A stretch of DNA of 49,995 bases, counting the filler, from Streblomastix strix (Eukaryota): NCBI GenBank assembly GCA_008636045.1. It is 3 parts of 3 records of this genome, joined end to end, with 100 filler letters (N's around TTAATTAATTAA, not from the genome) between each part and the next. Parts side by side here need not be neighbours in the genome. Positions count along the whole stretch, not along the records: positions 33,404 to 49,995 come from SNRW01000789.1; 2 more parts are not named here. One strand, given 5' to 3'. Shown one piece after another: positions 16,609 through 49,995 of this stretch (its first letter is position 1; each line of letters begins with the position of its first letter). A program made the translations under genes and the position numbers. Under the pieces are notes generated by a model that made no database searches, was not told the DNA's origin, and worked only from the letters and a program-made list of their open reading frames with translations.

Positions 16609-16708
16609 NNNNNNNNNNNNNNNNNNNNNNNNNNNNNNNNNNNNNNNNNNNNTTAATTAATTAANNNNNNNNNNNNNNNNNNNNNNNNNNNNNNNNNNNN
16701 NNNNNNNN
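16609..16708. other. Artificial contig linker
   Basis: N44 + TTAATTAATTAA + N44 (100 bp), identical to 33304-33403. Confidence 0.97.
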
Positions 16709-24306: not shown

Positions 24307-26250
24307 ATGAGTAACTAATAGAATCTGGTAACTGTTCTTCTGATTTTAGTTGCTTCTATCAATTCTTTGCATGCTTAATTTGTTAATATTCATGCAAATG
24401 ATAATGTAAACTCTATTGATGGAACTAATTGTATATCTTCAGCAATTCAATCAAAAAAAATTAAAGATGAAATAATTGATAATTATAAAATTCGCCCTCA
24501 AATTACTTCTTAGAATTTCCCTCAAATCTTAGACGGAAATACTGAATGTATTTATTAAGGATAAAATCAGAAAGAGAATCGATGCTAAATTCCAATATTA
24601 AATTCATTTCATCATATTGAACAAGTTCATCATATCAATAATAAACTTATAATGGTTAATAATTTCATAGTTATTATTATTCTCCATATAATATCATTAA
24701 ATTCCATATAACAAATAATCTCACAAAATAAAATGAAAACAAAATAAATCAATAAACTTAACAAAAATTAGATTAATTACTTACTGATAATTCAAATCCT
24801 TCGAGTATATATTTCTTTTGTTGGTATATTTGAATCCTCAGCTACAACATTTTTCTTTCAAAACTAAAATTATGTAGATTAGCCAGTAAGGAACATTACA
24901 GTAAATGAATCAGGAGATGAATATATTGAATGAAATTACCAATTTAATAAATGTATTTGTACAAGTGGGAATCGTGGAGCGATCTATATAAGACTCAATT
25001 AATCTGGCCAATTGAAAATTGTTGGAAATTTACTATTCAAAGAATATAATGCAATATAAAGTTCAAACAGCGGAGGATGAGATGGAAGCATTTATCTTTC
25101 ATTAACTCAATATTCAACAAATAATTTTACTATCAGTATCACTATTTCTTTTGTCGATAACAAAGCATAATTATTTGGAAGGATATATTCATTTATTGTT
25201 GGAATATCATATCAATAAATGTATAATAGCGTATCCTTATTAATATTAATTCTCCTTCATATAACAAAACTAATGCAATTTATGGAACTGAATTTGGAGC
25301 TAAATCAGAACTTGGAAGAAAACCATTTATTGATTAAGATCTAGGTTCGATATTAATTTCTGATCCATGCTGTTCAATCACTAACGATACATCAATATCA
25401 TAATGTTAATGTCTTTCAGAAGAAGATCCAAGAGCTGGTACTGCTTGTATATCATATTGAAAATCAAAATCAGAACTAACATCTGATTGTATTTGTGATT
25501 CAAATTCTTCATCTTATCCTTCTTCAGATTGTGAGAAAGATAAATTTTGCACATTCAATTTAACTAATTAATCTAATGCAACATGTCCATGTTAATCAAC
25601 AGGTGATCCAAGAAATGGTAGTTTTTGTCTTGTATACTGCATGAAAGGTTAGATATCTATAAATTGTGTTTGTGATACAAATTCAACTATTTTCCCATTG
25701 GCTTAATATCAGAAAGATATGTTGTGTATAACGGATTTGGAACATTAATCAGCATCTGAATGTCCAAGTTTGTGTACTGGTGATCCAAGAGCTGGAAACA
25801 TCTGTCCATCATATTGTACAGCTAAACATACACCAAATGCAAATTTTGCTTGCGATTCAAATCCAAATGCATAATATTTTCCATCTTAATGTCAATCTGA
25901 TAAGAAATGTACTGCAAGTTCAAGTTCTACAGTTCCAACTGATTTATGCATATTTTCAGAAATAAATTATCCTTATGGTTGCAATTGTCCAATAGATTCA
26001 TCACAATTAAGTGGTATCCCATCTTCCAGATGTGAAAGTCGAACAATTGGAGATCCCAGAGCAAATCGGATTTGTTCAGATTAATGTACAAAAGGATAAG
26101 TTACATCTAATTGTATATATAATTCAAATTCATCAGACTTTCCTATTACTCAATGTTAAAAAGAAAAATTATGTATAGCAGGTTTAATCAATCAAACTAC
26201 AGATAATTTTCATCTAGATGAATGCTATTATAACTATGTATCACCAAGCT
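24307..26250 (+). pseudogene. Decayed inverted duplicate of the 16709-19975 surface-protein gene
   Basis: Same start MSNQQNL(V)TVLL. CGA>TGA in GGRGG (~25078) and TGT>TGA in CPSYC (~25458); frameshifts; middle replaced by unrelated sequence at ~24450-24900. Confidence 0.85.
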
Positions 26251-28754: not shown

Positions 28755-31700
28755 ATGAGTAAATAATAGATTTAAAACCTACTAGACTAATTATAAGTTC
28801 AATATTTACCTAATTATAAATCAGTTGAATTAAGAAATATGTTAACTAATGAATTGCATCGTTTGAATTACTAAGGTCACATAACTGTTACAACTGAAAT
28901 TGTAGCTTTTGTAAATCAAATTGTTGCTATAAGAAATGAATAATAATAGTAATAATTAGAATAAGTTGAACAATAACAATAACCCTAATTATAATAATTA
29001 ATAGAAACAGTTGATGAATAGTATTAATAGTTGAATAATGATTAACATTAATCACAATTAGTCAAAAATATTGATGAGATCATAAATGAATTGGATTAAT
29101 CTGATAATACTGATGATGATCTATTCAATCCTGATAAATACAGAGCTAATTACAAATAAAAATTTGATTAAAGTGGTAGAAGATAGCGTATGCAATAATT
29201 GATACAAGCATAGCAATAAATCACCAATTAAATAAATTAGTTATAACGGTCATTATAAACAATTAATAGTATTTTAAGTGAAGAATTTGATTTAGATACC
29301 AACTCTGTTGACGGCATAAATGCTAATGAACAGATATAACCAACTGATATTAACGAAAATTATAAACTGTTGTTAGTTGAACAATAATTGAAACACTAAT
29401 AAAAATTAGATTAATAAGAATAGTTACATCAAAAAGAGATACAAGAATTAAAGGATAGATTAGAGAAATAGAATAAAGCAGCTGTTCTAATCCAAAAGCA
29501 TTATCGAAGGCATTTAGCAGAGCAACTAATGAAATAATCAATTAATTCTGCTAAGGTAATTTAAGGCAAATGGCGAAGACATAAGCTATACGAATAATTA
29601 GAATAGCTAATCATCAATTAAAGATATAAGAGATAGGGTGAAAAGCCATTTAGATTACTCAGTTATTTAGAAGCAAAATTAGGCGCTAAAGAGTTCGCAA
29701 AAAGAGTCAAAAAACTTAATGAAGAATATTATGGATTACATTAGAATCATTTTAGTGAACCGAGTATAACGAAAACATAGTAATTAAATAAAGATAGGGA
29801 ACTTGAATAGAAAGCATTCGTTATCTTCACACCATAGAATTTATAGGCTTATTATGTTGCATTAGATTAGGCATGATAGAAATTCTAGGATAAGAATGAA
29901 GTTAGTATAGAAGGATTATCTGATGGGCTAATGAAGTCGAAAGATATACTCAATAAAGAACCATATATTTAATACTATTACAATCATTTCTATGACTTAT
30001 AGCAACTGAAAATAAAATCTACTAGGTATATGAATTAGAGAAAGCTAAGCCTTATAAAGCATACATTAGTTTTGGATCTATCTGGTAGAAAAAGAAATAG
30101 GTATACAAGCATTAACAAACATTAGATGAATATCATTACACTCACACTACACCTAATGCTGGTGATAGTTACAAAACTCTATCTAACACAGTAGTTCGAG
30201 ATAAACAAACTAATGACTATTTCAAACAGAAGGCTGTCGATCTACTATCCGATTATTAAGATCCAATTCATGAAGATTCATCGACATTAATGACTGCACT
30301 ATATTCATTTTTGATTGTTGTTTACCGATTACCGTTAGGTACTAAAATGGATAAAATATGTTAGCACTTTAATAAAGAAGGTGTCACTAGGGATATTGAT
30401 TGTGAATATAATATATATTGGTTTATAGTAGCATCATTTGCATTGCACCCTGATATCGATAATAATAAGAGTAGGGTTAGTGATGCAATTAAATTGTTTC
30501 TCTAATACCATGACGTTAACTCAAGCTAGAGATTAAATAAAGCTAATAAATAATTACTCGAACAATATAAAGGTTTCAATTATGTAACTGATCTCGAAAA
30601 ATATCAATAAATATTCAAGCTAAACGTAATAACATATATGTGTGATGAGGTGAAACAAAAAACAAATCGTAGTGATGTCGAATAATTTAATAAATTTGAA
30701 GAACATATTATTGACAAGGACTATCAAACTGTTAATGTATTATTAGTTTCGTTGTCATTAGTCGATGAAATTCATGCAATGTATATTAGTGATATTGATA
30801 AGGTAATTAATGGAAAGCTCTGTCCTCTTAACTGTTAGACGATATTCAATACTAAGAACTAAAATTATAAGCGAGATCTTGCGAGACATTTGAAGTTCTG
30901 TTAGGGTCCATAGACAGCTAAATAAGTTAAATTAGATCATTTACCAAAGCCATATTATCCACATATATCAAATAATAAGTTACTCTAAAAATTAGTAGCA
31001 ACGGGCTAATCAGATTTGTTAATGCCAACACTCAATTACATTACATTTGATTTTGAGACAGTAAAGAACATAATTAATGAAGGTAATATAATAGCTTAAT
31101 TAGAACCATTATCTGTAGCGTCAGCAGCAACAATAAATGACTAAATTACAACGTAATATTTTGATTTACGAAATGGAACTGACTTTATTGAATAATGGAT
31201 AAGTTAATTGTTTGAAGTTGCTATTAAAGTCAATGAAGCTAATTAATCAAACATACCCGATATAACAATTGAAGATAAAAACTAGCATTAGCACGGAGTT
31301 TATCCATACAAGCCTCAAGTATCTGTTATTAGATTCAATTCTAAGAAATTTGATATAAATTTATTACTCAAACATCTACTTAAAAATAAGACTAAAATTT
31401 AATATTTAGGAACAACAACCTAGGCCAAACAAACAATTGTATCACATTAAGATTATGATTTTGACTTGAGATTTATTGATATACTATCATTCATTCCACC
31501 AAACAATACATTAAAGTAGTTCGTTGAGAAATTTGGAACCAAAGGTATAAAATTAACAAAGAGTATATTTCCACATGGATCATTCAATTATGATAACTAT
31601 AAATTAGTGTTAGGACTAACAATTCCATTCACTAAGGATGATTTCTATGACAAGCTTAATAATAAGAATATTAGTGATGAAGATTATGAATAATATGTTT

Positions 31701-33190
31701 ATGATTTCACTTCATTTCAAGACAGATGGGAGTATCTAAAGCACTATAATATCAGGGATGTTACTTGTATGATTAATCCAATCAATCATCTTATTCAAAT
31801 AACATGGGAGGAGAAATCAATATGTTAGGGTGTATATCATTAGCTCAAATTGCTAGTTAAATTAAATACAAGTACTGTTATGACAAGTTCGATATCAATG
31901 CAAGTTATAATATAGTTAATGGATTCGAATAATTCGAAGTCACTTAATACTGGTGGAATAACAAAGTTAAGGGATATATTAACCAAGATGAGTTTGCTAA
32001 GAGGGATACAACTAATAATGTAATTGAAGATGATATTGATTGGATTAGGGATAAAGTAGCTACTGAAACATGCCATCTATGTCACAATAAATTCACTAAA
32101 GAAAACAAACCCACATTAGATAGAATTGATAATTCAATTGGTCACACAAAATCGAACTGCCAACTTGCTTGTTAAATATGTAATACCGTTAAGGCTGATA
32201 AAGATAATGATATTAGTAAATTAAAGATATAATTAATGAAATATGCAATCCATGAACATCTACCTATGACTATTAACAACGAATCTGTATATAATATGTT
32301 AAAGAAATGTATGTAGGGTGGTTTGTCTAATGTGTTTCATTAATGTAATTTGAAAGGTGTCACACACATCAACAAACTTAGATATAATCATGTTACTAAA
32401 ACAATAACATCATATGATACTCCTCATATAATTACTCACATCCTTGACTTAGATTTCAACTCTCTCTATCCAAGTGTATTTAGTGGTATCTTCAACAAAA
32501 ATAACCCTTATACGAATAATCGAATATATCAAGCTGGAGGAGTAACTAGTTATTTCAAATGTACATCTAATAGTTCAAAATAGAAAGCTCGCGATGTAAT
32601 TATGAGTGATGATAGATATACTGACATTGGATAGCTATTCTGTGTTAAAATTAAAGGTCATATTGATGAAAAACATATTAACTCATATATCAAATTAGCA
32701 CCTATATGGAGGAAATTAACATACAATAATTCAATTGAATAGATAGGAGAATTTATGTACAATAAGATGAAATCATAGGGATTAACTGTTGATAAACCTA
32801 CTACAAAACTAACTTCATTGCTATCGACACACAATCAATTTATGTGCTTCACTAATTACATATTATGGTTTTTGATTGATTATTGTAATTTTATTATTGA
32901 TGACATTGATTCAATTGCTCTATTCGATAAACACCTAGGTTTTGAATCATTTGCCTGTACAATGATGGCTAAGAGATAGGATGCAATTAGCCAGCACAAT
33001 GACACGAAATCACTATACTACAAATAGATACTAAATAGTGCTTTTGGAGGAGAAGGATAAAATAATGCTAAATTTGATAAGATATCATTTAACAATGCTC
33101 GATAGACATCACTCAAATAATTGAAATTGGATCATAAGATAACAAGGAAATTAACTGATACTACATACAATTCTGATGGTGAAGTTATTG
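28755..33190 (+). pseudogene. polB: Protein-primed family B DNA polymerase (pPolB), disrupted and truncated
   Basis: ExoI YITFDFET (31037-31060), ExoII xFNSKKFD, ExoIII YLKHYNIRDV, motif A LDFNSLYPS (~32450-32475), motif B YKQILNSAFG (~33020-33048). In-frame TGA at 29874-29876; frameshifts near 30010 and 31818; motif C absent. Confidence 0.92.
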
Positions 33191-33303
33191 TATGTTAATT
33201 TCCTCCATATAGGTGCTAAATTGATATATGAGTTAATATATTTTTCATCAATATGACCTTTAATTTTAACACAGAATAGCTATCCAATGTCAGTATATCT
33301 ATC
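33185..33303 (-). repeat. Fold-back inverted copy of 32611-32729
   Basis: 119 bp reverse complement with 2 mismatches, at the contig end. Confidence 0.9.
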
Positions 33304-33403
33304 NNNNNNNNNNNNNNNNNNNNNNNNNNNNNNNNNNNNNNNNNNNNTTAATTAATTAANNNNNNNNNNNNNNNNNNNNNNNNNNNNNNNNNNNNNNNNN
33401 NNN
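33304..33403. other. Artificial contig linker
   Basis: N44 + TTAATTAATTAA + N44. Confidence 0.97.
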
Positions 33404-35031
33404 CTCTGCCTTAATATCTGGCATCGTAATAAATGAATATGCTAGAAAGAAACATAAATTTTAATTATTTTTCTCAGGGTCAATATATCGAATCTCTCGC
33501 CTAATAATATGCTTCTTTAATGATGGTATTGTTCGAACACCACCAGCGCCTGCATGTTAAAGCCTAAACACCTGAATCATTATTGAAAATATTCCTACTA
33601 TTTTCTCTTTGGTGTCCATGATGGTTTTCTCTTACATTTGAATTATGTGGTTTCTAATGTATCTTTTATAATCCTCCAAATCTAAGTGGGTGCGTATGGT
33701 TGTCAGTGCTTTCATCTATGTTCTGGCTTCAAGAGGATGATTAATTTTATACGTTATTTATTAATCGTTTTCTTAGCCATCAACTCGTTCAATAATCACT
33801 CCAAAATCAAATGCAATTTTGAATGCAAATTTCTATTCTCGCTAATATATTTCATCTAAATAAACATCAACATCTTCAATCGTTTTCAAATCATTTTTGT
33901 AATATTCTTTTGTAGGGCTGATGGTATGAACATAGAATAGGTCATATTTTACGTGTTAATTTTATAAATGTTTTCGCTCAAATTAAATTATTCTTTCATA
34001 TTCTTATTCGAGTTGTGGCTCGCATAACATTATCGTGCTCTATAGGACGTTAAGAGCATCAATTGGCCTAAAAATCTTGCCCTCATTTTCATTATTGAAT
34101 TATTTTATTTCATCTTTAACATTTTTAAACACATCTTCATTCTATTTTTATTTAAGATTTATTTTTTATTCATTGATTTCTTTCAATAAATTTGCATGTT
34201 TGACTCGTTAATCTTCCATAACTTGCTCCCATTATTAATTGTGCTGTTGGCTCTATTCGTCTTAAGCGTTCATTTGCTATTTGTTATTCTATTCTTGCAT
34301 AAATTTTTTAGCGTAAGCATCACCGATAATTTATTCGTTTTGAAGGCTTTATTGAATATCTTATCTGAATCGTCTTGCAAATGGTTCGGATTATAATATT
34401 GTATTTCTAACTATATCTCTATTGTTTCTACCGTGATTTAAACCGATTTTATCTAAAATTTATGAAAATTATGACCTCAATTCATTAACATTTATTTTCT
34501 ATTATATTTCAGGGTCATGTAAAACAATAATTCTCTTATAATATTTTGAGTTAATTTTTTAGGCCTTAAATCCAATTGATAATCCTCCTTGAGTCTAACG
34601 ACTTCGTGAGCTTCACCTTGTTCGGGTTTCAGTTCATGTGATAATTCAGGAGACAGTTAATAATTCCGTGCTTGCATTTACGTAATATAATTCTGCATTT
34701 ATATCAATTATTATTGTCGTTGTTCCATTTATAATTCAGGCGATAGTTAATAATTACGTGCTTACATTTACGTAATATAATCCTACATCAAAACCTATTA
34801 TTATTATTCTGTTTATTATTATGGCACTGGCTAATAATCGCGTACTTGCGCCCATCTTATATAGTCTCACATTTAAGTCATATATTATTATGTTTATCTG
34901 GGAGATTGATGCAGTGGTAAATTTAATGGTAATAGCTCTGGTAATTCTTGAGTCATTAACGGAGGCACAATTGGAGGCACAATTGGAGGCGTGCGTCGTC
35001 TTTATGAGTCTTACCCCTATTTACCTGCCAT
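33404..35031 (-). pseudogene. N-terminal part of pPolB (Gln-rich extension, terminal-protein-like region, start of vOTU-like domain)
   Basis: ...YLDEIYQREQKFAFKIAFDFGVIIE...IVGIFSIMIQVFRL...NQNLCFFLAYSFITMPD is colinear with the contig-2 pPolB (KPYKAYISFGSIW...LYSFLIVVYRL...YNIYWFIVASFALHPD). Contains frameshifts and TGAs; truncated by contig start. Confidence 0.75.
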
Positions 35032-35067
35032 TTATTAAAATTAAAAATAAAAAATATTTACATAAAT

Positions 35068-35260
35068 ATAATGATTAATAAATTGGACTGGGTTGATTGG
35101 ACCGAGTCAAAACATCAATGTATTTTATGAAATTGGCACAAAGAAATGGAATCGTTAATGAATGACTTTTGACTGGACCGTGTGGATTGGGTGGATTGAG
35201 TCAAAAACTTTTATAAAAAGCTGTGGCCAACTGGACAACTGGCCAATAATTGAGAAAAAT
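35068..35260 (+). repeat. Intergenic palindromic element, copy 1 (long form)
   Basis: TGAATGACTTTTGACTGGACCGTGTGGATTGGGTGGATTGAGTCAAAAACTTTTATAAAAAGCTGTGGCCAACTGGACAACTGGCCAATAATTGAGAAAAA. Confidence 0.95.
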
Positions 35261-35283
35261 AAATAAAAATAAAACCTATTAAA

Positions 35284-36364
35284 TCATTTGAATTTATATT
35301 TAGCTAAATCAAAACCACCTATTTATTCATGTCTCTATGTTAGAATTTGACCATAATATTACATGGCTTAACCAAGTGTTTCCTTAATTCTAGCATCGAC
35401 ATCTTTGGCTTAATATAATTGAGTAATAACGGTAGGCAATTCTTTATTATATAATCTTTTAGCAAATGGCAAAAATTCGTATTATCGTTACTAAATTTTA
35501 GTTTTATTGCTTCTGTTATATATGTCTATTTTTCCATCTTATCTTTCTAATATTTCTACCGCAGGACTAATAAGAACTGAATTCCAAGCAGATGCCATTA
35601 TTTGTTGTTTGATTGCCATTGGCAATTATGCGCCTCCATTTTGGTTTATGATTTTTTTGGCGTTGACGGTGAATGCTCTGAAACTAAAATTCTTTATCTC
35701 CCTTACCTTATGCGGCTTAGTCATTAACAGCCATTTCATGTAAGGGCCGCCTTTTATTCCAGATGCTTTTAATTTGGCTGCCAATGCTGCTCGTTCTAAA
35801 TCATTAACATCTGAATAATATTTTTTCTTCCAATTTCTTTTATGTTAATGCTCTAAGTCGCCAAATCCTACAGCTGTTGTATAACCATCGACTGAATAAA
35901 TCGCGTTCTTTTTCTTATCAAATACAACCACATTATCAGGAGTGGCTACATTATCATCTAAATCTTATTCCAATACACTAAATCGTTTGTCTAAATGCTT
36001 ATCTTATATATATTTTTTGGGCACTGACGGCAGACGATAAGCTATTAATTTTCTTCATATCTCTGTTCAAATAACCGACAAGTGTAGCAAGAACATCACC
36101 CGCCTCTTCTCTGAATTATGGGCCTCCATGCTTTCTTGTTGTTTGAATCATACTGGGATGGAACGGCAGCCTACCAAACGGTTTTGCTCGTGATTTCATT
36201 CTGTCCTATCTTGAAGCTTGTGATTCATAATAATCGTAATCATCCTCCATTCCGTCAATGTCCATCATCCCACCTGCACCACTAACACCTAAGCCTTAGC
36301 CTTTTTCCGTTTCAAATTCTTATCTTGCTTCCTTTTCAATTTATTTTAAATCGAATTCTGACAT
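35284..36364 (-). pseudogene. ~360-aa viral hypothetical protein (one +1 frameshift)
   Basis: MSEFDLKQIEKEARQEF...EQDLDDNVATPDNVVVFD...IYSVDGY...KYKFK*TGA; span 1081 = 360x3+1, with the shift near 36015. Confidence 0.7.
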
Positions 36365-36403
36365 TCTATTTCTTATCGAAAAAAAAAGTTTTAAATAATA
36401 AAA

Positions 36404-37193
36404 ATGGCGAGTTTAACATAAAAAAGTTGATAATATGTTAAAAAAAAATAAAAGTGAATAAGCACGAAATTTAAACTTTTATTCATAAAGAGTTAAATTT
36501 TACATATAACTCTGTAAATTTATTGATTGATTAGCGCGGCAGTGGCAAGACGTATAATGTCTTCAAAGAGTTAATAAAATTAAGTTAATTAAAAAAACAT
36601 TGTTATACACTATTCATATATGTCAGCGACTCAAATAATGACACCACTTATAAAAAGATGAAGGATTTAATTAAAATACCGATTAAAATTATTCCATATG
36701 CCGAAACGGATCAAGTGCTGAATGATTTGATAGAATGTAAATAAGCGTATGATGGAATATAAGAAAAATAATTATAAAAAGAACTAACTGAACAATCAAA
36801 AGATGATATATTAACCAATGTATTTGGTGCTAGTGGAGAAGGTAATTTTGACGTCAAATTTCCCCATATGATTGTTTTATTTGACGATGCAATGAGTATA
36901 TTTAAAAATAAAAATAATCCATTATTTAAGAAGTTATTTAAGAACTGATAACCCAGAATAACATACTTCCTTTGTTTATAGGACATCATTGGTTTGGATG
37001 CTGCGATTAAATCAAATCTTGATTCATTGTGGTTCTTCGGTTCATTTAACAGATTAAAATTTAATTAATTTTTTTATTAATCTTCAATACCATCAGATAA
37101 AGAAACAATATGGTATGAATATGTTCGACTAACTAAATAATAAGCATTAGTGGTATAATATAAAATGAGTGGAACAGTTGTTAAAATAATTTG
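36404..37193 (+). pseudogene. A32-like (FtsK/HerA) genome-packaging ATPase
   Basis: Walker A LLI[D]QRGSGKT (36529-36552, first Gly mutated), Walker B HMIVLFDDA, Arg-finger region KN[TGA 36946]QPRITYFLCLQD; frameshifts near both ends. Confidence 0.88.
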
Positions 37194-37216
37194 AAAACAT
37201 TTGAAAAAAGCAAATA

Positions 37217-37324
37217 TTTATTTTTCTCAATTATTGGCCAGTTGTCCAGTTGGCCACAGCTTTTTATAAAAGTTTCTGACTCAATCCACCCAATCCACAC
37301 GGTCCAGTCAAAAAGTCATTCATT
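37217..37324 (-). repeat. Intergenic palindromic element, copy 2
   Basis: Reverse complement of the copy-1 core; starts at the TGA stop of 37320-37670. Confidence 0.95.
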
Positions 37325-37670
37325 TCAGCGCTTAAACCAAATGGTTCAGAACATCCAAAAACTAGTCTAATTTATACTCAATCCTATTCAATTAATCTTT
37401 TGCACAAGTTCTTATACATACTTGACCTTCTATTTTTGATAACTAATAGCCGTCCAATTTATATAATTTATTTAATTTTTACGTTGATAGTTTAGATAAT
37501 TATTATTAATTTTGGGAAATAAATTATTTGAAATCGTTTAAAGTCTCAAAATATTTATGTCCGTCAGTCTAACCTTCGACCCCCTCCTCGTTATCTTATT
37601 CATCATATTCTATTTATAATTTTAAAGTAAATTAATTGTTTTTTCTATTGTCAAATAATATTCTTTCCAT
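37320..37670 (-). CDS. 116-aa conserved element protein
   Basis: Intact ORF: ...YFETLNDFKQFISQNQQQLSKLSTQKLNKLYKLDGYQLSKIEGQVCIR...ALK*TGA. Confidence 0.75.
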
Positions 37671-37704
37671 TTTATTTCTGCAAAAATAAAATAAATAATG
37701 CCGT

Positions 37705-38591
37705 TCATTTGTGTTCAAGTTATATATTCATATATTCCTTAATTTTATTTATGACTTCATCAGTTAAATCTTCATTAAATATATATTTAGTTCCTTTAAA
37801 TTAAATACCTTCCATATTTTTATTTAAATATTCTTTGATGGCTTCATTTTTGGTCATTGCAATACATTCCTAATCATAGTATAAAAATGCATCTTTTAAT
37901 TTCTACATCAATTTTCGACTAATACATTTCTTATTTCTTCTTCGAACCTTTAAAATTGTATTATTTTTATCATCAACTTCTATATATTGAACGGCTAAAA
38001 CATAAGCTGTTTCTATGCCTTATGGAACAGCTCTTGGTTTCAATTGTTATATTTCAATATCTTTTTAATTTATTATTATTTTTAATTCATTTTTTTTAGC
38101 TTTTATTTCTTCATAATTTCGATCAAATGTTATACTTTTGCATGATGCAATAGAAGTTGAATCGTCTAACTAATATTCTAAATGTATTCTTTCATCTAGT
38201 AAATCCATTATTTCATTTACATATTCTAAATATTTAACTGACGTTTTCATGCAGATAATATTCAGAAATTTCTTATGTGCATATGCTCCTCTTATTTCAT
38301 TTGATAAAGATAATGGAAGTTAGTAAATCAGGGGTGGCTCAAATTGAGCCGACCTCCTAATTCGAGACAAGATTTATAGTCTTAAAACATTGGAGAACGA
38401 ATTATGTTTTTTAATTATTTATTTGTTTTTTCTTACTAATTTATTTATTAAACAAATTTTGTTGCATTAATATAATCGTCTTTATCTCGGATTATTATAT
38501 TGAATCCATTATTTGAGCCAACAGTAAAATTTTCATTGTTTGTTGCAATTGATTATATTGTTCTGTTGTTTTGTTCGTTTGTTGATTCCAT
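37705..38591 (-). pseudogene. KilA-N domain protein (frameshifted)
   Basis: NGFNIIIRDKDDYINATKFVQQ...NEIRGAYAHKKFLNIICMKTSVKYL, then coiled coil and LKPRAVP; frameshift near 38340-38370. Confidence 0.8.
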
Positions 38592-38647
38592 CTTATATAC
38601 AGATAAAAAGTTAAATTTGTATAAAAATAAAACGATTTATTTTAAAA

Positions 38648-38956
38648 TCATTTAATTTATTTTATTTTTTCATCTGCTTCTTAAATTTTTAATTCTAATT
38701 TCTTTATATTTTTTTTACAAACTGTTTCAGATTCAATATTTCTTAAATTGGCCTCTTTTTAAATTAATTTCATCATTTCTATCATTTTTTATTTTGCATT
38801 AATTAATCTTTCTTATTCATATTCATAATCAATAATTTTAAACTCTAAGTCTTCTCCATCTCTTTCAGCTTGCACTAATAAAAATTTCATAGTATCTACC
38901 ATAAAAATTCGTGCATATTTTTCAAAACTTAAATTCTATTTCTCATTATTTGCCAT
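38648..38956 (-). CDS. 102-aa coiled-coil hypothetical protein
   Basis: Intact ATG..TGA ORF under table 6: MANNEKQNLSFEKYARIFMVD... Confidence 0.6.
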
Positions 38957-39004
38957 CTCTATAGTGATAAAAACATGAAATTAAATAATAATAAATAATT
39001 TATT

Positions 39005-39397
39005 TCAATATTCCAGCATCAACTCCAGAACAAATTTTAATTATTAATTTATTTTCATTAATTCTTAATTTTAGCGGAACCATACATATAAATATCTGTT
39101 GTGGTTATATAGAATGAAAGGCTTATAAACTCGTTATTCATTACAATAGTCAACAAATTAATCGAAATATTATTCTTCCTAAACCATTGAACTATGAACA
39201 GAAATGTCTTCGTTAGCGCCTTAGTTTGAACAATGACATTAGCAGAATATTATTTTTCTTTAATTATCTGAATTTACAAACGCGTATGGTAATGCAAAAC
39301 CAACTCCATTTTATCCGTTTTCTCCGATAACAACTCCATCATTTTATATTAAAGTGTAATATTTTAAGTTTTATGCTGAAGTCATATTTGAAACCAT
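39005..39397 (-). CDS. 130-aa beta-rich protein, candidate minor capsid/structural protein
   Basis: Intact ORF: ...GFALPYAFVNSDNQRKIIFCQC...DISVHSSMVQ...YLYVWFR...KFVLELMLEY*; lies directly downstream of the capsid-like gene. Function is inferred. Confidence 0.55.
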
Positions 39398-39514
39398 TTA
39401 TTACGAAATAAATAAAAAATAATTAATATAACTAATGACCTATTTAATTAACTGTATTAATGTTCAGGTGTTAGTTATATATGCAAATAAAAAAATAAAA
39501 AATGTTCAATTATT

Positions 39515-41235
39515 TCAGGCACTTAATGGTCCAATAACTTCATCAAATGAATGGTTTGTATCATATATGCAGCTACCACCTGCAGCGCGTGAAAACAACC
39601 AAAATGTATCATGAACTGTGCATAAAATAGGATGCGGTGGTATCTTTCCGCTGGAATCAACATTATAATATGAATCTGTAGCTCCTTGATATATTGGTGC
39701 TCCTCTGAGTTCGACAGATGTGTTTTAGTTTTGTGTGTCTAATCTGTCAAAAGTTAGTGCTCCGTTGCTGTTCCTTTCACATTATAGAGTTATCAAAAAG
39801 CTTGTTAAATCTGTATGAGGGTTCAGTCTTCGGGTTGCAGTATTTCTTAGCATTGTCAAAGCATCTTCGAATTCATCAATGGCTTCGAATAAAAGGTCAA
39901 GATTTGACGCATTGAGTTATAATTGGAAGAGTTATTGGTCTAGCGTATTCATGGGCATATCTGGGAAATTACGTCCGCAGGTGGTTACTTGCATGTTCTG
40001 ATAGCAAGGATTTTCAAAGCAAATCGTAGCTCTTGCATCTTTAAGGAACAGAAGGCAGAAGTCGGTTACGTGAGACAGAGGAATATTATAAGATGTTCGT
40101 ATTCATGTTAAAGTAGCAGACGTTGGAAATGGCCATACTTCCACACGTTGAGCGGGAACAACAAATGGACGTTAGCTGTATAATTTTCGGACTCGATTAA
40201 GGCATGCATCAGTAGCTTTATAACCTGCCATGTTAGCGGTTACCTCTGTTATGACATAATTTTTTATGCTTATGGTGACCGGTTTGATGTCGCATATTAA
40301 GTTTTTCAATCCTGACTCAGTTAGTGGTTCCGCATGTAGTCCTGTAATCAAGTCAGAAGTGCATCCCAATTACGTAAATTATTTAGTATATTGGAATGTC
40401 AGACTCCAATTTCTGAACATCAAATCAATATCCATTTTCTTCTATTGACTGCTACCCAATAACTCATCTTTATTCATTGTATAATATTTAGCCATTGAAA
40501 TTATTGGATTCACTTGACAGAAAACGAATGCATGAGGATTAATTTTGAATTTTATTTTTAAATCACCAAATTGGCCATTAGGGTAGTCAGTGAATGCAGA
40601 GAATATCAAGAGGTCATCAAGTGGAATGCTGACTTTGAAACGTATTGGAATTGTATATGGAATGGATGTTTGATTTCCTATTAGCTCTTCAATCTCTCGC
40701 ATATTTATATTTGTTCCACACGCTAACGTATCAAAATTATGAATGTTCTCGTATAAAGAATGTATATGTTTTCTATTATTTTTCTCACTTTTTGGCTTGA
40801 TTGTATTATAAATGAATGATTCAGTTGTTGCGTCATTCTATAAGTTTCCATCAATAGTTTTACCTCTATGATAGATGGTATATTCGAGAATAAGATTTGA
40901 GCCTGATTTGAGACCTACGAATAGAACCAATCCGTCTTTATATGATTCGTCAATTTTATCAAATTTATCATCGAGTTAAATATTGGCAGTTAGCACTACC
41001 GACAAGAATGAATTTTATATCTATGTGATGTCGTGGTCTGTGTCTGATAAACTAATGATTATCTCCTTATCAAATAAGCTGGCATTTATGATTCTGGTTT
41101 GATTTCCTTGATTGAATAACGATGTTCTCCGTCATTAGTGAATGGAACGATAGCATTACCTAACAATGTTTCTTCAATTGTTCCTGCTTGTTGTAAATGT
41201 GTGGCTTTCATTAAGAATCTGTTTATCTTTTACAT
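39515..41235 (-). pseudogene. Probable major capsid protein (~570 aa, double jelly-roll inferred)
   Basis: Long beta-rich ORF: LFVGLKSGSNLILEY...FKVSIPLDDLLIFSAFTDYPNGQFGDLKIKFKINP...FVVPAQRVE...CFENPCYQNMQV...ITLQCERNS. Size and context next to ATPase and fibre genes fit an MCP. Frameshift near 41075 and TGA at 40103-40105. Confidence 0.7.
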
Positions 41236-41303
41236 TCAATAAAAAATTGAAATAGTTAAATATAAACGTAATGAAATAAAAATCATTTATTAAATATTTA
41301 TGA

Positions 41304-41387
41304 ACCATGTGGATTGGGTGGATTGAGTCAGAAACTTTTATGAAAAGCTATGGCCAACTGGACAACTGGCCAATAATTGAGAAAAAT
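41304..41387 (+). repeat. Intergenic palindromic element, copy 3 (5'-truncated)
   Basis: ACCATGTGGATTGGGTGGATTGAGTCAGAAACTTTTATGAAAAGCTATGGCCAACTGGACAACTGGCCAATAATTGAGAAAAA. Confidence 0.95.
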
Positions 41388-41411
41388 TTAAATCGTTAAT
41401 GTTTATGTTTT

Positions 41412-41726
41412 TCATTGGTTCTGTAATTTTATTCTTCAACTCTGTATGTCAATTGTTAATTTTTATCTTAAATATTCATCATTTCTCAACGTTTCAAAAT
41501 CTTATCTAAATTAACCGGTTTTATCCGCACCATAGCCATAATCAAGAAATGAGCTAGCAGCATCTAAACCATTGCCTATTGTTTAGCCTACAGGACCCAA
41601 TATTCCAAGTATCGGTATTGCAAATGGTTTCATAAACGGTTTATAAATGTTATGATTAGCCCATTAAAGACCCTTCCCTACTTTTTGAACTAATTGCTTT
41701 ATTTTAAGAAAAATCTCAATTGCCAT
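41412..41726 (-). CDS. Small protein with N-terminal amphipathic helix (candidate membrane-lytic virion protein)
   Basis: MAIEIFLKIKQLVQKVGKGLQWANHNIYKPFMKPFAIPILGILGPVGQTIGNGLDAASSFLDYG...; first TGA at 41436-41438, second in-frame TGA at 41412-41414. Confidence 0.65.
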
Positions 41727-41808
41727 AACTTTATTTTTAATAAAAATAAATTTTTATATGTACTATTTTGGATTTGAATAATTGATCGATTTATTTTTCA
41801 TTAATAAA

Positions 41809-41987
41809 TTGGCCAGTTGTCCAGTTGGCCACAGCTTTTTATAAAAGTTTTTGACTCAATCCATCCAATCCACACGGTCTAGTCAAAAGTCATTCATAAT
41901 TTAATCCACTTCTTCGTGCCAATTTCCTAAAATTCATCTATGTTTTGATTCGGTCCATTCAACCAAATCCATTTTATTAGTCATTAT
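41809..41987 (-). repeat. Intergenic palindromic element, copy 4 (long form)
   Basis: Reverse complement aligns with copy 1 over ~180 bp. Confidence 0.95.
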
Positions 41988-42012
41988 CAAACGTTCAATA
42001 AATAAACGTTTT

Positions 42013-43593
42013 TCACAAATAATACATTCCACTGGCGTAATGTTTATAAACATCAGCTGAATCTATTGGGATTGACTCTTATGGTTCTTATAATTAAAAG
42101 TATAACATTTTAAATTATGAATTTACTATAAAATAATTCACTGAAAATTTATTCTATCTTCCGCCCTATGTGCTACATATAGTTGCAGGGAAGCCCAAAT
42201 TTTTACCATCTGCAGGTATTACAGAATCAGGAATACGACCAACTTCTTACGTTCTGCCATTTAAACCTTTAGATTCAAAATATAGATTGAATACGCATAC
42301 TCTACAAGTGTCATCATCAACGATATAGAACGTATTATATGCTGATGAGGGGAAAAAATCATTTATCATAAACTGATTATAAACATTTGTTATCGTATAT
42401 TGTGGTTGTGGCGATGAACCTAATTATTTTTCATGTTTTATTATTACTTCGTCGATGTGAGATTCTACATCTTCAGGTGCTGACTCGTTGGCGTTTGTGC
42501 TGTTCGTATAGTTATCAAGTATATAAGTTCTTTAAAATTCACAATCTAGCATATTCAATTATCCGCTGACGGCCACCTATACAGCTGATGATTTATCATA
42601 CATATCCTTGAACAAACTCATAGCAGAAAATTCCTGTTGTTCGACATGAATAGGCATATATTTCGTATTAGGTGGTAGTAGTTTTTTGCTGATTGTCGAA
42701 AATAATTTATATACAGTCTATTATGCTTCATAATTGGCACCTAATTGTGTCAATTTTGCCCTAAAGCTATAAGTGATGAATGGACCATCTTTAATAAAAT
42801 ATGCTGCTCTATCTGCTTTATATCTCGCTAATTCATCCATAAGTTTTATTTCACTGTTCAAATAATTAGTTCGATTTAGCCCTTACACTACCGCCTCGAT
42901 TAAATTTGTTTAATTTTTCACTGTTTTATAAACGTACGATTAGGCTTCAAATTAACCATTTCCATTAACATTCCATGTATCCATAATGTCAATTTTTCCG
43001 TCATTATTGGAATCATAATTTATTTTTTTCGATGATTCATAATTTCTATAATATGTGATATTAAGCACAAGAGCAGTATTTGACGGCAGCCACCGAGAGC
43101 TTATAATAAATGGCACTCCTTAATCGATATAACAAAATATGTTATATGTATTGGAGGCATCGGTTCCAACTAATGCAATCACTTAATCACCCTGTTTTGG
43201 TCTCGCTTCTTGTGGATAACTTTAAAATAAATAACCGTTCGGAAATACACCTGTTGTTGCATATGACGCGGTAAGTGTAATTCCATCGCCATAAACGACT
43301 AATTATTGATCTGAACCACTGGAGGCTAAAAAACTTTATCGCTCTAATTATGTACTCAAATCCAATTTCGTTATAGCATTCGGCATTGGTGGCTCGAACT
43401 TTTCATTTGATGCGTAGATAATATCATCGTTATTTTTCACTTGCTACTACAGAGTTTGGTTTCTAATTGGAACAGATTGCGGCTGTTGCTCGAGTGGCTT
43501 AGGATAACGTTCTTTGATATATGCGTATAATTCTGGGAAGTAAGATAAACCAGCAGCGTCTAATAATCTTTCATCGATATAAACATTTGACAT
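42013..43593 (-). CDS. 526-aa protein with three repeated beta-domains resembling fibre/receptor-binding heads
   Basis: Intact ORF (527 codons). Recurring segments YLFQSYPQEARP, KLFSTISKKLLP and EVGRIPDSVIP, each preceded and followed by beta-strand-like patterns. Confidence 0.65.
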
Positions 43594-43654
43594 TTATATT
43601 CAATAAAAATAAATAATTAATCCAAACAATTTCAAACAATTATTAGCAGAAGCA

Positions 43655-46563
43655 TCAAAGCATCCAACTGAATTATAAGCCAACATCATCATTAATACCC
43701 AAGCTTCTGTTGAGTCGGTAGTTATTCGGAAATCTCAATATGAATACACACATGTTAATGTCTTTCGCTTCATTGCGAATGAAATAGGATATGTAGTGCT
43801 TGGAGGTGTTGGAGGAGTTATGGAATTACTTATGCTTCCAACAGTGCAAATTGTAGTTTATGTAGAAATATTGATTTAAGTTTTTGGTTAAATTTCCATC
43901 ATCAAAGTATAAAAAATGCCTATTCGAGTAAATTTTAAATAATTGAATGTAATATTAGAATCTAAATTGACAACTAAATTTGTTATGTCCTCCACTTGCA
44001 CTCCTCCAAATGATGATAATAATTGGTAACCGCCACCAGCCAATAAAATCAATGTATCATCCTTACCTGTTTTAGCAAATCCAGCTGCACTAACATTTGA
44101 ATTGAATGTTTTTGTGCCATATATCGTTTAATTATCATAACGACAAACAAAAGCATTATAAATTTCTCCTCTTGTCAAATAATCTTTATCATACTCCGAC
44201 ATTGATAACTCATCATCATCTATTCGTAAAACTCCATGAATTATTTAAAGTTCTTATCCCGTTTTTTTCACATAATTAGAATCATCAACACTTCCACCTC
44301 CGAATTCAGAAATTGGTTTTGTTCCACCTGCTCCAAGTAATACAACGCTATCATCAGCACCTGATTTAACAAATTATGAGCCTGTAATTGTTCCCATTCC
44401 ATTGATAGAACTTACGAACCTACAAGCATTATTGCATGTCTTGTTCGCTGTTATTGTCTATGAAGTGCCCAAGGTCATATAACCGCTTAAATCAACATCA
44501 CCAACTTCAATTTATGATATCAAATAATCAGTTTCTGTTTTTGTATAAGTTGTTGATTGATTTGCTTTCAACAGCAGCAACGCATCATCTTCACCTTTTG
44601 TTTATGAAACACCTGAATTGGCTTTATTACTGAGCAGATTATCGGCTTCTCCTTTAATGTATGAATCGATTAATTATGTCTTATCAGCCTTCAACAGCAG
44701 CAGAGCATCATCCTCTCCTTTGGTGTATGAAACTCCTGAATTAGCTTTATTACTGAGCAAATTATCGGCTTCTCATTTTGTGTATGAATCAATCAATTAT
44801 GTTTTATCAGCCTTCAACTGCAGCAACGCATCATCTTCTCCTTTTGTATATGAAACACCTGAATTGGCTTTATTATTGAGCAAATTATCGGCTTCGCATT
44901 TAGTGTATGAATCAATTAATTATGTTTTATCAGCCTTCAACAACAACAGAGCATCATCTTATGTCTTAGTGTATGCATCGATTTAATCGCTTACGTTTAA
45001 TTTGTCGTCGAGTAGAGCATCGGCTTCAATCTTCGAATATACATCAATTAATTATGTTTTATCAGCCTTCAACAATAGCAACGCATCATCTTATGTCTTA
45101 GTGTATGCATAAATTTAATCAGAAATATTTAATTTTAGATTTAAATTTTAATCTTTTTCAGTTCATGAATAATTTTATGATTTATTATAATAATTTGAAA
45201 AATTAACGCTTGCATTTACGTCCTGTATGGCCTTAACACCACCACCAGCACAAACAACAGAATTATTATCGTAATTTTATACAGATATTCCGACTGTGTG
45301 GATAGTTGTATTAAATATCTTTTAACCTGTAATAGTTTCATCATAGTTAGTCGTTATAAATGAACTATTTTTCGCAGGTATTAATGTATTTCCATCAAAT
45401 GATAAATCTGTTATTGCATTGCCTCCTCCTGTAGCAGCTCCAAGAATGGTCATGACGATGCTCATATCTGGCAGTTCTGTTTCTAGTGCTCGAAGATTAG
45501 AGCCATCCCACCAATAATCCATGATTTACTTATCAACTATATATAAATTATCACCAATTGCTAATTTTGCAACGTTTTCCTAATCTTCCATCCAAGTATT
45601 CATCTGATCCGTAGTCGCGAAGACATATCCTTTTGATTCGCCTGAAGCGATATCTCGAACTTCTTATAATTATGACTATGATACTAATGAACTTACTAGC
45701 ATATCACCATCACCAGCTAGAAGAATTGATTCATCATTTTTATTCAATTTCGATATGCTTGAAACACTTATTATTCCGAATTATTCTTGACCTGTTATTG
45801 TTTGAGCCGAAGTTAAATCAACATAATCCGCTAACTCTGTTTTATCAGCCTTCAATAATAGCAGAGCATCATCTTTCTATTTATTATAAGCATCAATTTA
45901 ATCAATAATATTTAATTTTTCATCAAGTAAGGCATCAGCTTCAGACTTATTATATGCATCGATTTAATCGCTTACGTTTAATTTGTCGTCGAGTAGAGCA
46001 TCAGCTTCTTATTTGGTATATGCATCAATTAGCTCAGTTTTATCAGCTTTCAATAATAGCAGAGCATCATCTTCAGTTTTCGAGTTAGCATCGATTTAGT
46101 TATAAATATTTAATTTATCATCGAGTAGGGCATCGGCTTCAATCTTCGAATATGCGTCGATTTAATCGGATATATTTAATTTATCGTCGAATAGGGCATC
46201 GACTTCGGTTTTATTGTATGCATCAATTTAGTCTGAAATATTTAATTTTAAAGCAAGCAATTCATCATCTTCTGTCTTCGAATATGCATCAATGAGCTCT
46301 GATTTATCAGCTTTCAATAATAGCAGAGCATCATCTTCTTATTTCGTATATGCATCAATTTAGTCGGAAATATTTAATTTTTTATCTATCATTTCATAAA
46401 TTTCTTCACGATTATAAGGTTTAGACGCTTCATTAGTTATATTTATTATATTTTCAATATTTTTTACTTCGTTAATTAAGCCAATAGTGTTATACTTACT
46501 TGAACCATAAAGCACTTAATCATGATTTAACACAACATCAAGCATATGCAAATCTCCGTCCAT
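43655..46563 (-). pseudogene. ~970-aa fibre-like protein with phage-tail-fibre-type repeats
   Basis: ~20-aa repeats (D)AYTKxEDDALLLLKADKTQLI and AYSKIEADALLDDKLNISDQI; QTITGQKxF..SILLAGGG modules. TGAs at 45163, 44773 and 43735; frameshift near the 3' end. Confidence 0.8.
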
Positions 46564-46594
46564 TTTATAAAAATAAAAATAATTTATTATGGCA

Positions 46595-47131
46595 TCATAT
46601 TTTATTTAACACAGTCATTAATCCTTTAGATACTGCACTAATAATTTTGCTTGTAATTTCTCCTGAATCTAAAATATTTTTTATTTTTCTTATTTTTTAT
46701 AAACAAATTTTATAGCTATCCCTTAATAAATTTACTTTTTCGACGTCGATCTTTAATATATTTACGTTTCCAATCAATATCTCATTTAATGTTTAAGTCG
46801 AATCGCTGCAAAACCTACCACTACATCCTTCATCCTCTATACTCAATTAAATTTAACTTTCTGGGACGTCGAAAGTGTAGGCAACAACCCGAATCAAATA
46901 ATTTTCAGATAATATGAAATGCACTGATTCTTTAATCATATTCTCGTCTTCACTAATGACATCCAACAGCCAACGACACACTGAAGGGTCTGGAGTTAAA
47001 TTTTCTTCAAAAATTGAACTTCTGCACCTAGCTGACAAGGTTGGAGTTTCACATCTGATAACCTGTTGCTGAAATGGGTCAATTTCTTTTTCAAATTATG
47101 GTTCCACTTCTGGAATAGTTGGACTCTTCAT
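46595..47131 (-). CDS. 178-aa viral hypothetical protein
   Basis: Intact ORF (179 codons): MKSPTIPEVEPQFEKEIDPF...VLNKI*TGA. Confidence 0.7.
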
Positions 47132-47505
47132 TTTAATAATGTTAAAAATAATTAATTATTTGTGTAAAATAAAACCGAAAATTGAGCCTAATTAATAGAC
47201 TAAGATTGAGCTAAAAAGGTCATATTCGGAATCAGCGCATATGAATTGTGTCTATAGTTGATTATCAAATCATTTTAAAATTTCAAGAAAATAAAGTTAT
47301 TTTTTTATTTTTTATTTTTTTAATTCCTATATATAATGACTGTAAAATTATAAGCCAAAAAATAAGCCAAAAAATTAATGTTTTTGTATTGCCTTGAGAA
47401 TGATATTTATATATAATGTTGATACGTAAAGTTCAAAAATAACGTTTAAATTGATATCTCGAACGGTTGATGCATATCAATTTTGCAATATAAAAGTGTA
47501 TGATT

Positions 47506-47632
47506 TTGGCACGAGAAAATGGAATAGATAGTGAATGACTTTTAGGTGTTCCGAGTGTTCCGAGTGTTCCGAGTCAAAAAATTTTAAAAAATGCTGTGGC
47601 CAACTGGACAACTGGCCAATAATTGAGAAAAA
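47506..47632 (+). repeat. Intergenic palindromic element, copy 5 (variant with (GTGTTCCGA)3)
   Basis: TGAATGACTTTTAGGTGTTCCGAGTGTTCCGAGTGTTCCGAGTCAAAAA...GCTGTGGCCAACTGGACAACTGGCCAATAATTGAGAAAAA. Confidence 0.93.
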
Positions 47633-47714
47633 ACTTAAAAAATAAAAAAAATAAACTTATTTTAAAAATAAACGAGATTGTTATATACAAATTCAACTTT
47701 TTAATTATATATAA

Positions 47715-48795
47715 ATGGAATCAAAAGACAATCAAGCACAAACTAGCCATTCATTAACAATTCAAGAACGTATCTAAAATTTGTATGTGAATACTTATGA
47801 TTATAATAAATTTCCAATCATTTGTAAAACAGGCAAATCATTTTCAGGTAGAGCAATCGACATATCAAAATGTTAAAATCTTGCTGTTGTTGATATTGAT
47901 ATAAATAAAAATTTAGATAAATTAATATAAAAATAAATTCGAGAATTAATCGTTGAAAAAATTCCTTAAATGTGGGATTAATCAAAACAGAACATGGAGA
48001 ACTTCATATATATTGTGATATCAATGGATTTGAATTATAGGGAACATCAAATATATAAGTTTATAAAAGTGATAATTTTAATGTGGATATATTTGCATGT
48101 GTTGATGATAAACAAAGATGGATTATGTAATATGGGTCAAAAATACGTGATAGAGTTAAAGCAACAAAGCAAATGGAAGATTAGAACGAATAAATTGGTG
48201 AAATTAAAGTTGTATATTAATATGAGGCAATAAATGATTATTTAAATAAAATAAATTTATGTGAATTAGGACAAATTTTGAACATATTCGGAATAGATTT
48301 TGATGTTAATTAATAGGTCATGACAAATTAAAAGGAATAACATAATGAGTAAGACAAACCACTGCTACAACCAACAGGATTAATCGGTATGAAAAAGGAT
48401 TTCGTGATTATGTTATGTAAAGGAATTAGTGGTCTTTAAATACATAACGACTCATAACGTCATAATTTTAATGATGAAATAACTTTACTTCCATTATTTG
48501 CTGCAATTAATAGTATAATTAATATTGAAGGAATTGATAATCAATATATTTGAGAAACATATAAAAAAATAAAAATTAATAATAATTTAACAGATAAAGC
48601 AAAATAATTATTTGATGCAGCTAAAATAAGATATGAATAAAAATAATTACATCCATTCGTTTTATAAAAAATAATTAAAAAATATAATCCAAAATATTAT
48701 TAAGAATATGTAATGCCTATGTTAGTGAATGAAAAAAGATGTAAAAATTTAATTGAAGTATAATAAATTGATTTAAAAGATAGTTTCACATTATT
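47715..48795 (+). pseudogene. Prim-Pol (AEP superfamily primase-polymerase) N-terminal region, frameshifted and truncated
   Basis: Motif I NLAVVDIDIN (~47877-47906); motif II KTEHGELHIYC (~47985-48016). Confidence 0.8.
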
Positions 48796-49995
48796 CATGT
48801 ATTAAATTTTATTCTTTTTATTTGCTGCATCATATTATTTAACTATGAATACTTAACCTCCATCACATGGTTCAGTTCGTAATATTCTGGTTAAGTCCTG
48901 AGCTATTGTTTCATATTCATTATATTTATAGATACCATTTTATAACTTTTTTTTACATATCAAATAATGTGAAACTATCTTTTAAATCAATTTATTATAC
49001 TTCAATTTAATTTTTACATCTTTTTTCATTCACTAACATAGGCATTTCATATTCTTAATAATATTTTAGTTTATATTTTTAGCTATTTTTTATAAAACGA
49101 ATGGGTGCGATTATTTTTTTTCATATCTTTTTTAGCTATTTCAAATAATTATTTTGCTCTCTCTGTTAAATTATTATTAATTTTTATTTTTTCATATGTA
49201 TCTTTAATGTATTGATTATCAATTCCTTCAACATTAATTATACTATTAATTGCTGCAAATAATGGAAGTAAAGTTATTTCATCATTTAAGTTATGACCCT
49301 ATGAGTCGTTATATATTTCAAGACCACTAATTCCTTTACATAACATAATCACGAAATCCTTTTTCATATCGATTAATCCAATTGATTGTATTAGTGGTTT
49401 TTCTTACACATTATATTATTCCTTTTAGTTTGGTATGAACTATTAATTGACATCTAAATCTATTCCGAATATGTTCAAAATTTGTCCTAAATCACATAAA
49501 TTTATTTTATTTAAATAATCATTTATAGCTTCATACAAATATATAACTTTAATTTCTCCAATTTATTCGTTCTAATCTTCCATTTGTTTTGTGGCATTAA
49601 CTCTATCGCGTATTTTCGACCCACACTACATAATCCATCTTTGTTTATCATCATCACTTGCAAATATATCCACATTAAAATTATCACATTTATAAACTTA
49701 TATATTTGATGTTCTCTATAACTCAAATCCATTAATATCGCAATAAATATGAAGCCCACCATGTGCTGTTTTGATTAATCCCACATTTTAAGGCATTTTT
49801 TCAACGACAGATTCTTGAATTTATTTTAAATTAATTTATCTAAATTTTTATTTATATCAATATCAACAACTGCAAGATTTTAACACTTTGATATATCGAT
49901 TGCTCTACCTGAACATGATTTACCAGTTTTGCCAATGATTGGAAATTTATTGTAATCATAAGTATTTATATACATATTTTAGATACGTTCTTGAA
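48796..49995 (-). pseudogene. Second, inverted Prim-Pol copy
   Basis: 48963-49995 is a diverged reverse complement of 47761-48795, with LAVVDID and KTAHGGLHIYC. Confidence 0.8.

Follow-up and report, generated by a model that had tools for sequence, protein, structure and literature searches.

What kind of element fills the third contig of this stretch of Streblomastix strix DNA, and which genetic code did it use while it was still replicating? The window analysed here (49,995 nucleotides, filler included, from assembly GCA_008636045.1) consists of three contigs joined by N-spacers at 16609–16708 and 33304–33403. Our subject is the entire third contig, 33404–49995, which is virus-like across its full span and whose two ends both cut into the element. 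What this contig very probably preserves is part of a Maverick/Polinton-like DNA virus, damaged by mutation, that encodes a capsid and reads TAA and TAG as glutamine. It is likely to be one among the hundreds of copies integrated in S. strix, an oxymonad, or in a close relative. The double jelly-roll capsid fold, membership in the S. strix capsid family, the use of code 6 and the breaks in the genes are established. A first-pass annotation made from the sequence alone had described an endogenous Polinton-like virus written throughout in the host code; the capsid and the code agree with that description, but what is present is a broken fragment with its ends missing.

The capsid protein and its relatives

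The major capsid protein (MCP) gene lies at 39515–41226 on the minus strand and was assigned to the Metamonada (MMN) group by fold and homology. The gene carries a frameshift near 41077–41080 and a TGA at 40103–40105, and was searched with X at the internal stop. There were 214 homologue matches; all 120 of the 120 listed are labelled S. strix, with 52–94% identity and on contigs of up to 57 kb. A profile search reached 548 clusters (50% identity) at E ≤0.001, and Pfam returned no capsid or DUF4106 match for the family. A fold predicted from 47 close homologues had a pLDDT of 43 and no Foldseek match at E ≤0.001; a fold predicted from a 97-row alignment reached a pLDDT of 93.4 and a pTM of 0.92. 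Foldseek placed the Sputnik MCP first for this model (E 7e-13), followed by the capsids of iridovirus, PBCV-1, mavirus (to 1e-10), faustovirus and PRD1, and a viral structure library agreed. As modelled, the MCP is thus a double jelly-roll protein, and the capsid-like gene of the first-pass annotation is what it was taken to be. Sputnik and mavirus, which represent the virophages (Maveriviricetes) and have the nearest capsid fold, share only ~10% identity with the window MCP, and no protease was seen in the window piece. When 49 of the 97 MCP rows were placed in a quick tree, the window MCP fell within a 14-row S. strix group (SH-aLRT 100) among metagenomic relatives without names. The MCP family is far broader than S. 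strix and Trichomonas, most members that we looked up being nameless and on short metagenomic contigs (P0168–P0312).

The main claim, that the Metamonada-group viruses of S. strix are written in the code of their host, is already published, and its novelty had been overstated in the first-pass annotation. The parts of Bellas et al. 2023 (PMC10120064) cited here report 820 MCP hits in S. strix, give Sputnik 3j26 as the top structural hit of one S. strix MCP, state that the endogenous viral elements (EVEs) of S. strix use the host translation table and infer a long-term association. The MMN viruses of that study have the same capsid family as the window element, at the identities given above, the same top structural match, the same table and a very high copy number, and do not differ from it in kind; for these elements, the passages and table rows cited describe neither a gene map nor a repeat between genes, and include no test of selection. 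It was the only work found in our literature search to name both ‘Streblomastix’ and ‘Polinton’. In the portions cited, a 2026 preprint leaves Metamonada Polintons unplaced and a 2026 catalogue includes a code-6 giant virus genome. The contig is largely ordinary apart from a short intergenic repeat, R, which is described below.

Related contigs (L001–L026) were compared with the element. A close copy, L001, carries an MCP with 92% DNA identity to that of the window and open across 390 codons; next to it lies a host gene of the GH92 family (Pfam E 3e-23), which contains TAA/TAG. Thirteen others, L002–L014, are standard-code relatives from an assembly, G001, labelled Alphaproteobacteria. Their MCPs and ATPases are 23–30% and 37–43% identical to those of the window, and what they have in common with it extends to the N-terminal domain of the protein-primed polymerase (pPolB), a conserved gene A and some of the gene order. 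They differ in having an integrase-like open reading frame (ORF) and no R repeat, and a Prim-Pol gene was not found in them with the window query. Despite its label, G001 holds many standard-code Metamonada-type virus contigs, likely co-assembled protist or viral DNA, and the public proteins from it bear the bacterial label.

Trichomonas vaginalis uses the standard code. Its Mavericks, according to the table cited (PMC7845603 Table 2), have a family gene set of pPolB, integrase, ATPase, a KilA-N N-terminal protein, a DNA primase domain protein and fibre-like structural proteins, and the third contig has counterparts, in part putative, of all of these except the integrase. S. strix MCPs match those of T. 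vaginalis Mavericks at ~32% identity (rows cited from Bellas Table S5, PMC10120064). In contrast to the window piece, these Mavericks have a documented c-integrase and terminal repeats, and their primase is a subclass gene, Mav1.6. The first-pass annotation had singled out the pairing of pPolB with Prim-Pol; pPolB alongside a primase is already known at family level; Yutin et al. 2013, in the part cited, describe pPolB plus a primase-helicase as uncommon.

Stop codons read as glutamine

Between 33404 and 49995 there are no stop-free frames of at least 150 aa under table 11, whereas table 6 gives 47, of which many are shadows. The code was tested on the MCP using the 82 alignment rows not labelled S. 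strix, their status being taken from the label. Gln was the commonest residue in 7 of the 12 columns where the window has TAA or TAG (TAR), including residue 254, where it occupies 76 of 80 rows. Its share of residues was 33% at TAR columns and 23% at CAR columns, and it was outside the six commonest residues elsewhere. In the ATPase, Gln was invariant at 4 of 14 TAR columns in 8–9 non-S. strix rows. TAR made up 0.50–1.0 of the Gln codons in 15 viral frames, compared to 0.64–0.75 in 4 host frames. Together, the table 6 frames and the TAR codons at conserved Gln positions of homologues bear out the TAA/TAG = Gln code.

TGA behaves differently. The internal TGA of the MCP falls on a Gly column (Gly in 51 of 82 rows) and that of the ATPase on an Arg column (Arg in 9 of 9 homologues not labelled S. 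strix); because these residues stand there in homologues, the internal TGAs are not recoded, and a role for TGA as a sense codon was rejected. The capsid and ATPase frames stop at TGA where their homologues stop, as had been annotated, although neither is a clean ORF, given the internal TGAs and frameshifts.

Was the code used by the replicating virus, or did it arise in a dead copy? Compared under code 6, the MCPs of the window and L001, a single pair, show a synonymous divergence (dS) of 0.35 and a non-synonymous divergence (dN) of 0.026 (dN/dS 0.073), and 9 of the 16 Gln codons common to both are TAR in both. TAR use is therefore older than the split between the two copies and was kept through strong purifying selection, so that decay by itself cannot account for the code. 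Judged from these codons, the replicating virus itself likely used TAA/TAG = Gln. Long adaptation to the code, as proposed in the first-pass annotation, is supported by the same pair and by the single S. strix capsid group in the tree.

The opposite view, that TAA and TAG arose after insertion by neutral C-to-T decay of CAA and CAG in a virus that was not code-adapted when active, fits a copy that is decayed and AT-rich. However, with only 2.6% non-synonymous divergence from L001, 50–100% of Gln codons are already TAR, and the shared TAR codons persist under purifying selection despite the synonymous divergence. Furthermore, the G001 relatives are open under table 11 and 13 of their 14 homology-supported genes stop at TAA, whereas the window capsid and ATPase frames stop at TGA. 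A neutral-decay origin is already contradicted by the present data and we consider it almost certainly wrong.

Since TAA-terminated genes of the relatives would be read through in a code-6 host, the stop-codon barrier to host switching is predicted to act both ways. The selection test suggests code use by a replicating virus, and the family offers a usable test case for the genetic code limiting virus host range. Tetrahymena thermophila also reads TAA and TAG as Gln. Its Tlr elements are Polinton-like, with a double jelly-roll MCP and a packaging ATPase, but in the text cited (PMC4028283) they have an SF1 helicase instead of pPolB and belong to a distinct capsid lineage, unlike the window element.

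Gene content, damage and integration

The minus-strand frame at 33404–35031 is probably the N-terminal part of a pPolB gene cut by the contig end, with a TGA and a frameshift in its 5′ part and a tentative start codon. It was assigned because it matches G001 both directly before a pPolB-like frame (E 9.8e-15) and within a 1536-aa pPolB-like frame (E 1.2e-4). The catalytic part would have followed past 33404, where the contig stops. Of the pPolB reported in the first-pass annotation, this N-terminal part stands; the catalytic pPolB, 30290–33231, sits in another contig past the second N-spacer, and the N-terminus in contig 3 has no match to it. That polymerase belongs to a second, different pPolB element adjoining host genes (contig 2, 28300–33303). 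Its N-terminal ORF is Gln-rich and contains an IQ motif, and its pPolB is frameshifted and interrupted by an endonuclease VII/HNH insert (PHROG E 1.5e-10), which L005, L009 and L013 apparently have too.

The gene order of relatives indicates where an integrase would be expected. In L005 the order is pPolB, integrase-like ORF, gene A, ATPase, further ORFs, small ORF and MCP, and in L013 it is pPolB, integrase-like ORF, small ORF and MCP. As the position right after pPolB is lost from the contig, the absence of an integrase from 33404–49995 says little. The window frames, those of the ATPase and MCP included, were scanned with Pfam and PHROG; as had been noted, neither an integrase nor a protease was found, and there was no match to an adenovirus-like cysteine protease in any frame scanned of this incomplete element.

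A plus-strand gene at 36404–37194 encodes a putative A32/FtsK-type packaging ATPase. It is inactivated by N-terminal frameshifts, a change of the first Walker A residue and a TGA at 36946–36948, the codon at the Arg column described above. It had 43 homologue matches, 34 of them labelled S. strix. In the PDB, the family profile matched the packaging ATPase B204 of STIV best, though only modestly (E 0.013), and 7 of 21 family members matched a terminase-type PHROG. An A32-like identity is consistent with this, and grouping with cellular ATPases was not seen, in what is a weak check made by profile match. The MCP and ATPase genes have no introns, as both are collinear with their homologues, and for these two genes the intronless structure originally described stands. 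Divergent from the ATPase is the frameshifted gene A (35284–36364, minus strand), a conserved protein of no assigned function with short matches (E ~1e-4) to the gene at the same position in L003–L005. Most annotated S. strix ATPase homologues (P0123–P0163) begin past the Walker A region, so either their public annotation is cut short or these copies, too, are damaged.

The frames between the ATPase and the far end of the contig are mostly on the minus strand. Gene B (37320–37670, 116 aa) is open and has no family at a meaningful score. It is followed by a KilA-N domain protein (37705–38591) split by a frameshift near 38350, whose first and second pieces match Pfam KilA-N at E 2.9e-5 and E 0.032, respectively; the KilA-N call is sound for a gene that is no longer whole. 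Next comes an open 102-aa ORF of no assigned function (38648–38956). Contig cover over the KilA-N and 102-aa ORFs (38128–38925) was reduced in 4 of 4 sequencing runs, and parts of the region are missing from several contigs, which hints weakly at an accessory block that varies. A 130-aa ORF directly after the MCP (39005–39397) is a penton or minor capsid candidate by position only; comparisons with relatives for penton homology were not significant. Upstream of the MCP is an open 96-aa ORF (41436–41726), and a small ORF occupies the same place in L002, L005 and L013, without similarity by BLASTP. All have an N-terminal amphipathic-looking helix, which to us recalls the membrane-lytic adenovirus protein VI.

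Farther along are an open 526-aa ORF (42013–43593) with no family or relative found and an open 178-aa ORF of no assigned function (46595–47131), both on the minus strand. Between them, on the same strand, is the putative fibre gene (43735–46563). It has 66- and 123-bp repeats and matches PHROG 5004, a family of unknown function, at E 3e-9. The name fibre is a reading of the repeats; the repeat protein reported earlier is present, with internal TGAs at 45165 and 44775.

At the end of the contig, 47761–49995 is a head-to-head fusion of two likely Prim-Pol (AEP) copies, ~90% identical. Copy 1 (47717–48795, plus strand) has a frameshift and a TGA and is cut at the foldback, and the second (48796–49995, minus strand), joined to it at 48795, is frameshifted and exceeds the window end. 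A DxD, a TxxGGxH and a third catalytic motif are visible, in what we take to be the PF09250-type AEP pattern. With a local Prim-Pol profile these pieces were the 4 best of 750 segments, but only at E 0.08–0.5. The HH probability was 10%, and other profile and database searches, including Pfam, PHROG, IMG/VR and G001, were blank or not significant. The Prim-Pol gene of the first-pass annotation is accordingly visible in its motifs but not in any search, and it is two fused, frameshifted copies. The end of contig 2 has a foldback as well (32611–32729 versus 33185–33303, 98% identical), of a kind typical of amplification chimeras.

In all, 8 of 14 frames are broken by an internal TGA or frameshift, including all six genes named in the first-pass annotation; frameshifts affect both Prim-Pol copies and the pPolB N-terminus as well as gene A and KilA-N. 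With capsid and ATPase both broken, the present copy is unable to build or fill a virion alone, and the virion formation described for the lineage does not extend to it. In intact members, the protein-primed polymerase would copy a linear genome, the A32-type ATPase would pump it into the jelly-roll capsid, attachment would be via the fibre, and an rve integrase, encoded just downstream of pPolB in the part lost from this contig, would insert it. The lineage likely took up the host code while replicating under selection, and the present copy would have decayed after insertion and be mobilisable only in trans.

Several points weigh against this account. First, neither flanking host DNA nor a terminal inverted repeat is present in 33404–49995, so that integration of this contig itself can be called no more than likely; a target duplication, an integrase and a protease are absent from it as well. 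Second, the window ATPase matches no Pfam or PHROG family, leaving an assignment that is weak by itself. Third, the pPolB and integrase identities of the relatives come from consensus motifs and one PHROG match (E 1.2e-4), and Pfam detected neither in those contigs. Fourth, the foldback, with its 90% identity, suggests that several copies may have been combined into a chimeric contig. Lastly, some of the breaks could be assembly artefacts, as for other EVEs in Bellas et al.

We also considered a free extrachromosomal virus of the protist, with the stops and frameshifts as assembly noise. The lack of host flank would fit, many EVE stops were found to be artefacts in the parts of Bellas et al. 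cited, and 24 contigs of sequencing run X1, as well as L001, have the base whose loss causes the MCP frameshift. However, 8 of 14 frames are broken and the ATPase has missense damage at its catalytic motif, many annotated S. strix homologues are likewise fragments, and the close copy L001 is joined to host DNA. Searches of IMG/VR by MCP, ATPase or Prim-Pol found no relative, and the first two of these nulls also speak against a free virus. A free virus is therefore a highly improbable explanation, and we retain a damaged, likely integrated copy.

The intergenic R repeat

The feature that sets the contig apart is R, whose core consists of 9-bp units, an AT-rich centre and 8-bp units. R1 (35068–35247, plus strand) has a 70-bp core and a degenerate upstream copy; R2 (37233–37313, minus) lies between convergent genes; R3 (41301–41387, plus) and R4 (41808–41987, minus) follow; and R5 (47494–47632, plus), with variant 9-bp units, lies between divergent genes. 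The five copies end at 35247 (+), 37233 (−), 41374 (+), 41808 (−) and 47620 (+), a strictly alternating orientation. The cores of R1, R2 and R4 are identical at 68–69 of 70 bases. R is absent from contigs 1 and 2 (33 kb together) and from L002–L026, its exact motif has no occurrence in GTDB genomes or IMG/VR, and Rfam gave no hit. No published mention of it turned up in a search that lay outside most subscription papers and bioRxiv supplements.

Several functions were examined and set aside. R sits between convergent, tandem and divergent genes, and was rejected as a pure promoter or a pure terminator. Of 3 copies compared with shuffled sequence, just one folded better (z −3.5, −0.6, +0.7), which does not support a conserved hairpin. 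As a coding fragment it is unpersuasive: although a frame stays open in the copies, the changes are few and, by hand count, only about half are silent. A host short interspersed element would be expected elsewhere, and the other two contigs hold no copy. By analogy, R is likely a conserved cis-regulatory cassette of the virus and may also be a recombination point. The analogy is with the PeSL cassettes of T4-type phages, described in the passages cited (PMC2839356) as short intergenic promoter/terminator cassettes at which recombination shuffles modules; these are from bacterial phage and have no sequence relation to R.

Near-identical repeats are also natural misjoin points, and amplification or assembly could have fused several viral copies or modules into a chimeric contig via R and the foldback, in which case neither the gene order nor the pairing of pPolB with Prim-Pol would be that of a real genome. 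The head-to-head Prim-Pol fusion of ~90% identical copies, the 98% foldback of the neighbouring contig, the hundreds of similar copies and the fact that no compared contig spans even 4 kb all point this way. Sequencing runs from 3 studies contain thousands of variant contigs with near-identical sequence, and they provide the evidence to the contrary: contigs of runs X2 (another study) and X3 run from the end of gene B into R2. The junction of R3 with the MCP recurs as well, since L001 keeps the left part of R3 upstream of its MCP before exiting the element inside R3. In addition, the gene A/ATPase and small ORF/MCP neighbourhoods agree with those of relatives. We regard a chimera as unlikely, though a serious concern, and favour a single damaged element of which R is likely a part.

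The same departure of L001, which switches to other DNA before the host gene at a position matching 41325, raises the idea of modules (polymerase; gene A and ATPase; capsid; fibre; Prim-Pol) that move separately, with the R copies as their true ends or as the sites where they recombine. The virus would then be segmented or modular, and a module could be inverted, excised or integrated by itself. Strict alternation is in keeping with this, as are R1, R2 and R4 cores that are nearly identical while close MCP copies show the dS given above, and consecutive locus tags that place the MCP beside the ATPase in several S. strix copies, unlike here. However, there is a single junction case, in a type of assembly prone to chimeras; alternation of five copies has a chance of ~1 in 16; no recombinase was found and no target duplication seen; and the relatives L002–L026 carry no R. 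We consider mobile modules improbable. A fuller version, with R as the recombination or end signal of a modular or segmented family whose polymerase, packaging, capsid, fibre and primase blocks invert, reassort and integrate alone, under a two-way stop-codon lock to the host, is slightly more doubtful still. As a likely regulatory cassette, R provides a lead on gene regulation or shuffling in an unplaced virus group.

Elsewhere in the window, 14071–18289 and 24930–26133 encode host Cys-rich repeat proteins with units like CPCLSTGDPRAG, probably a surface protein family.

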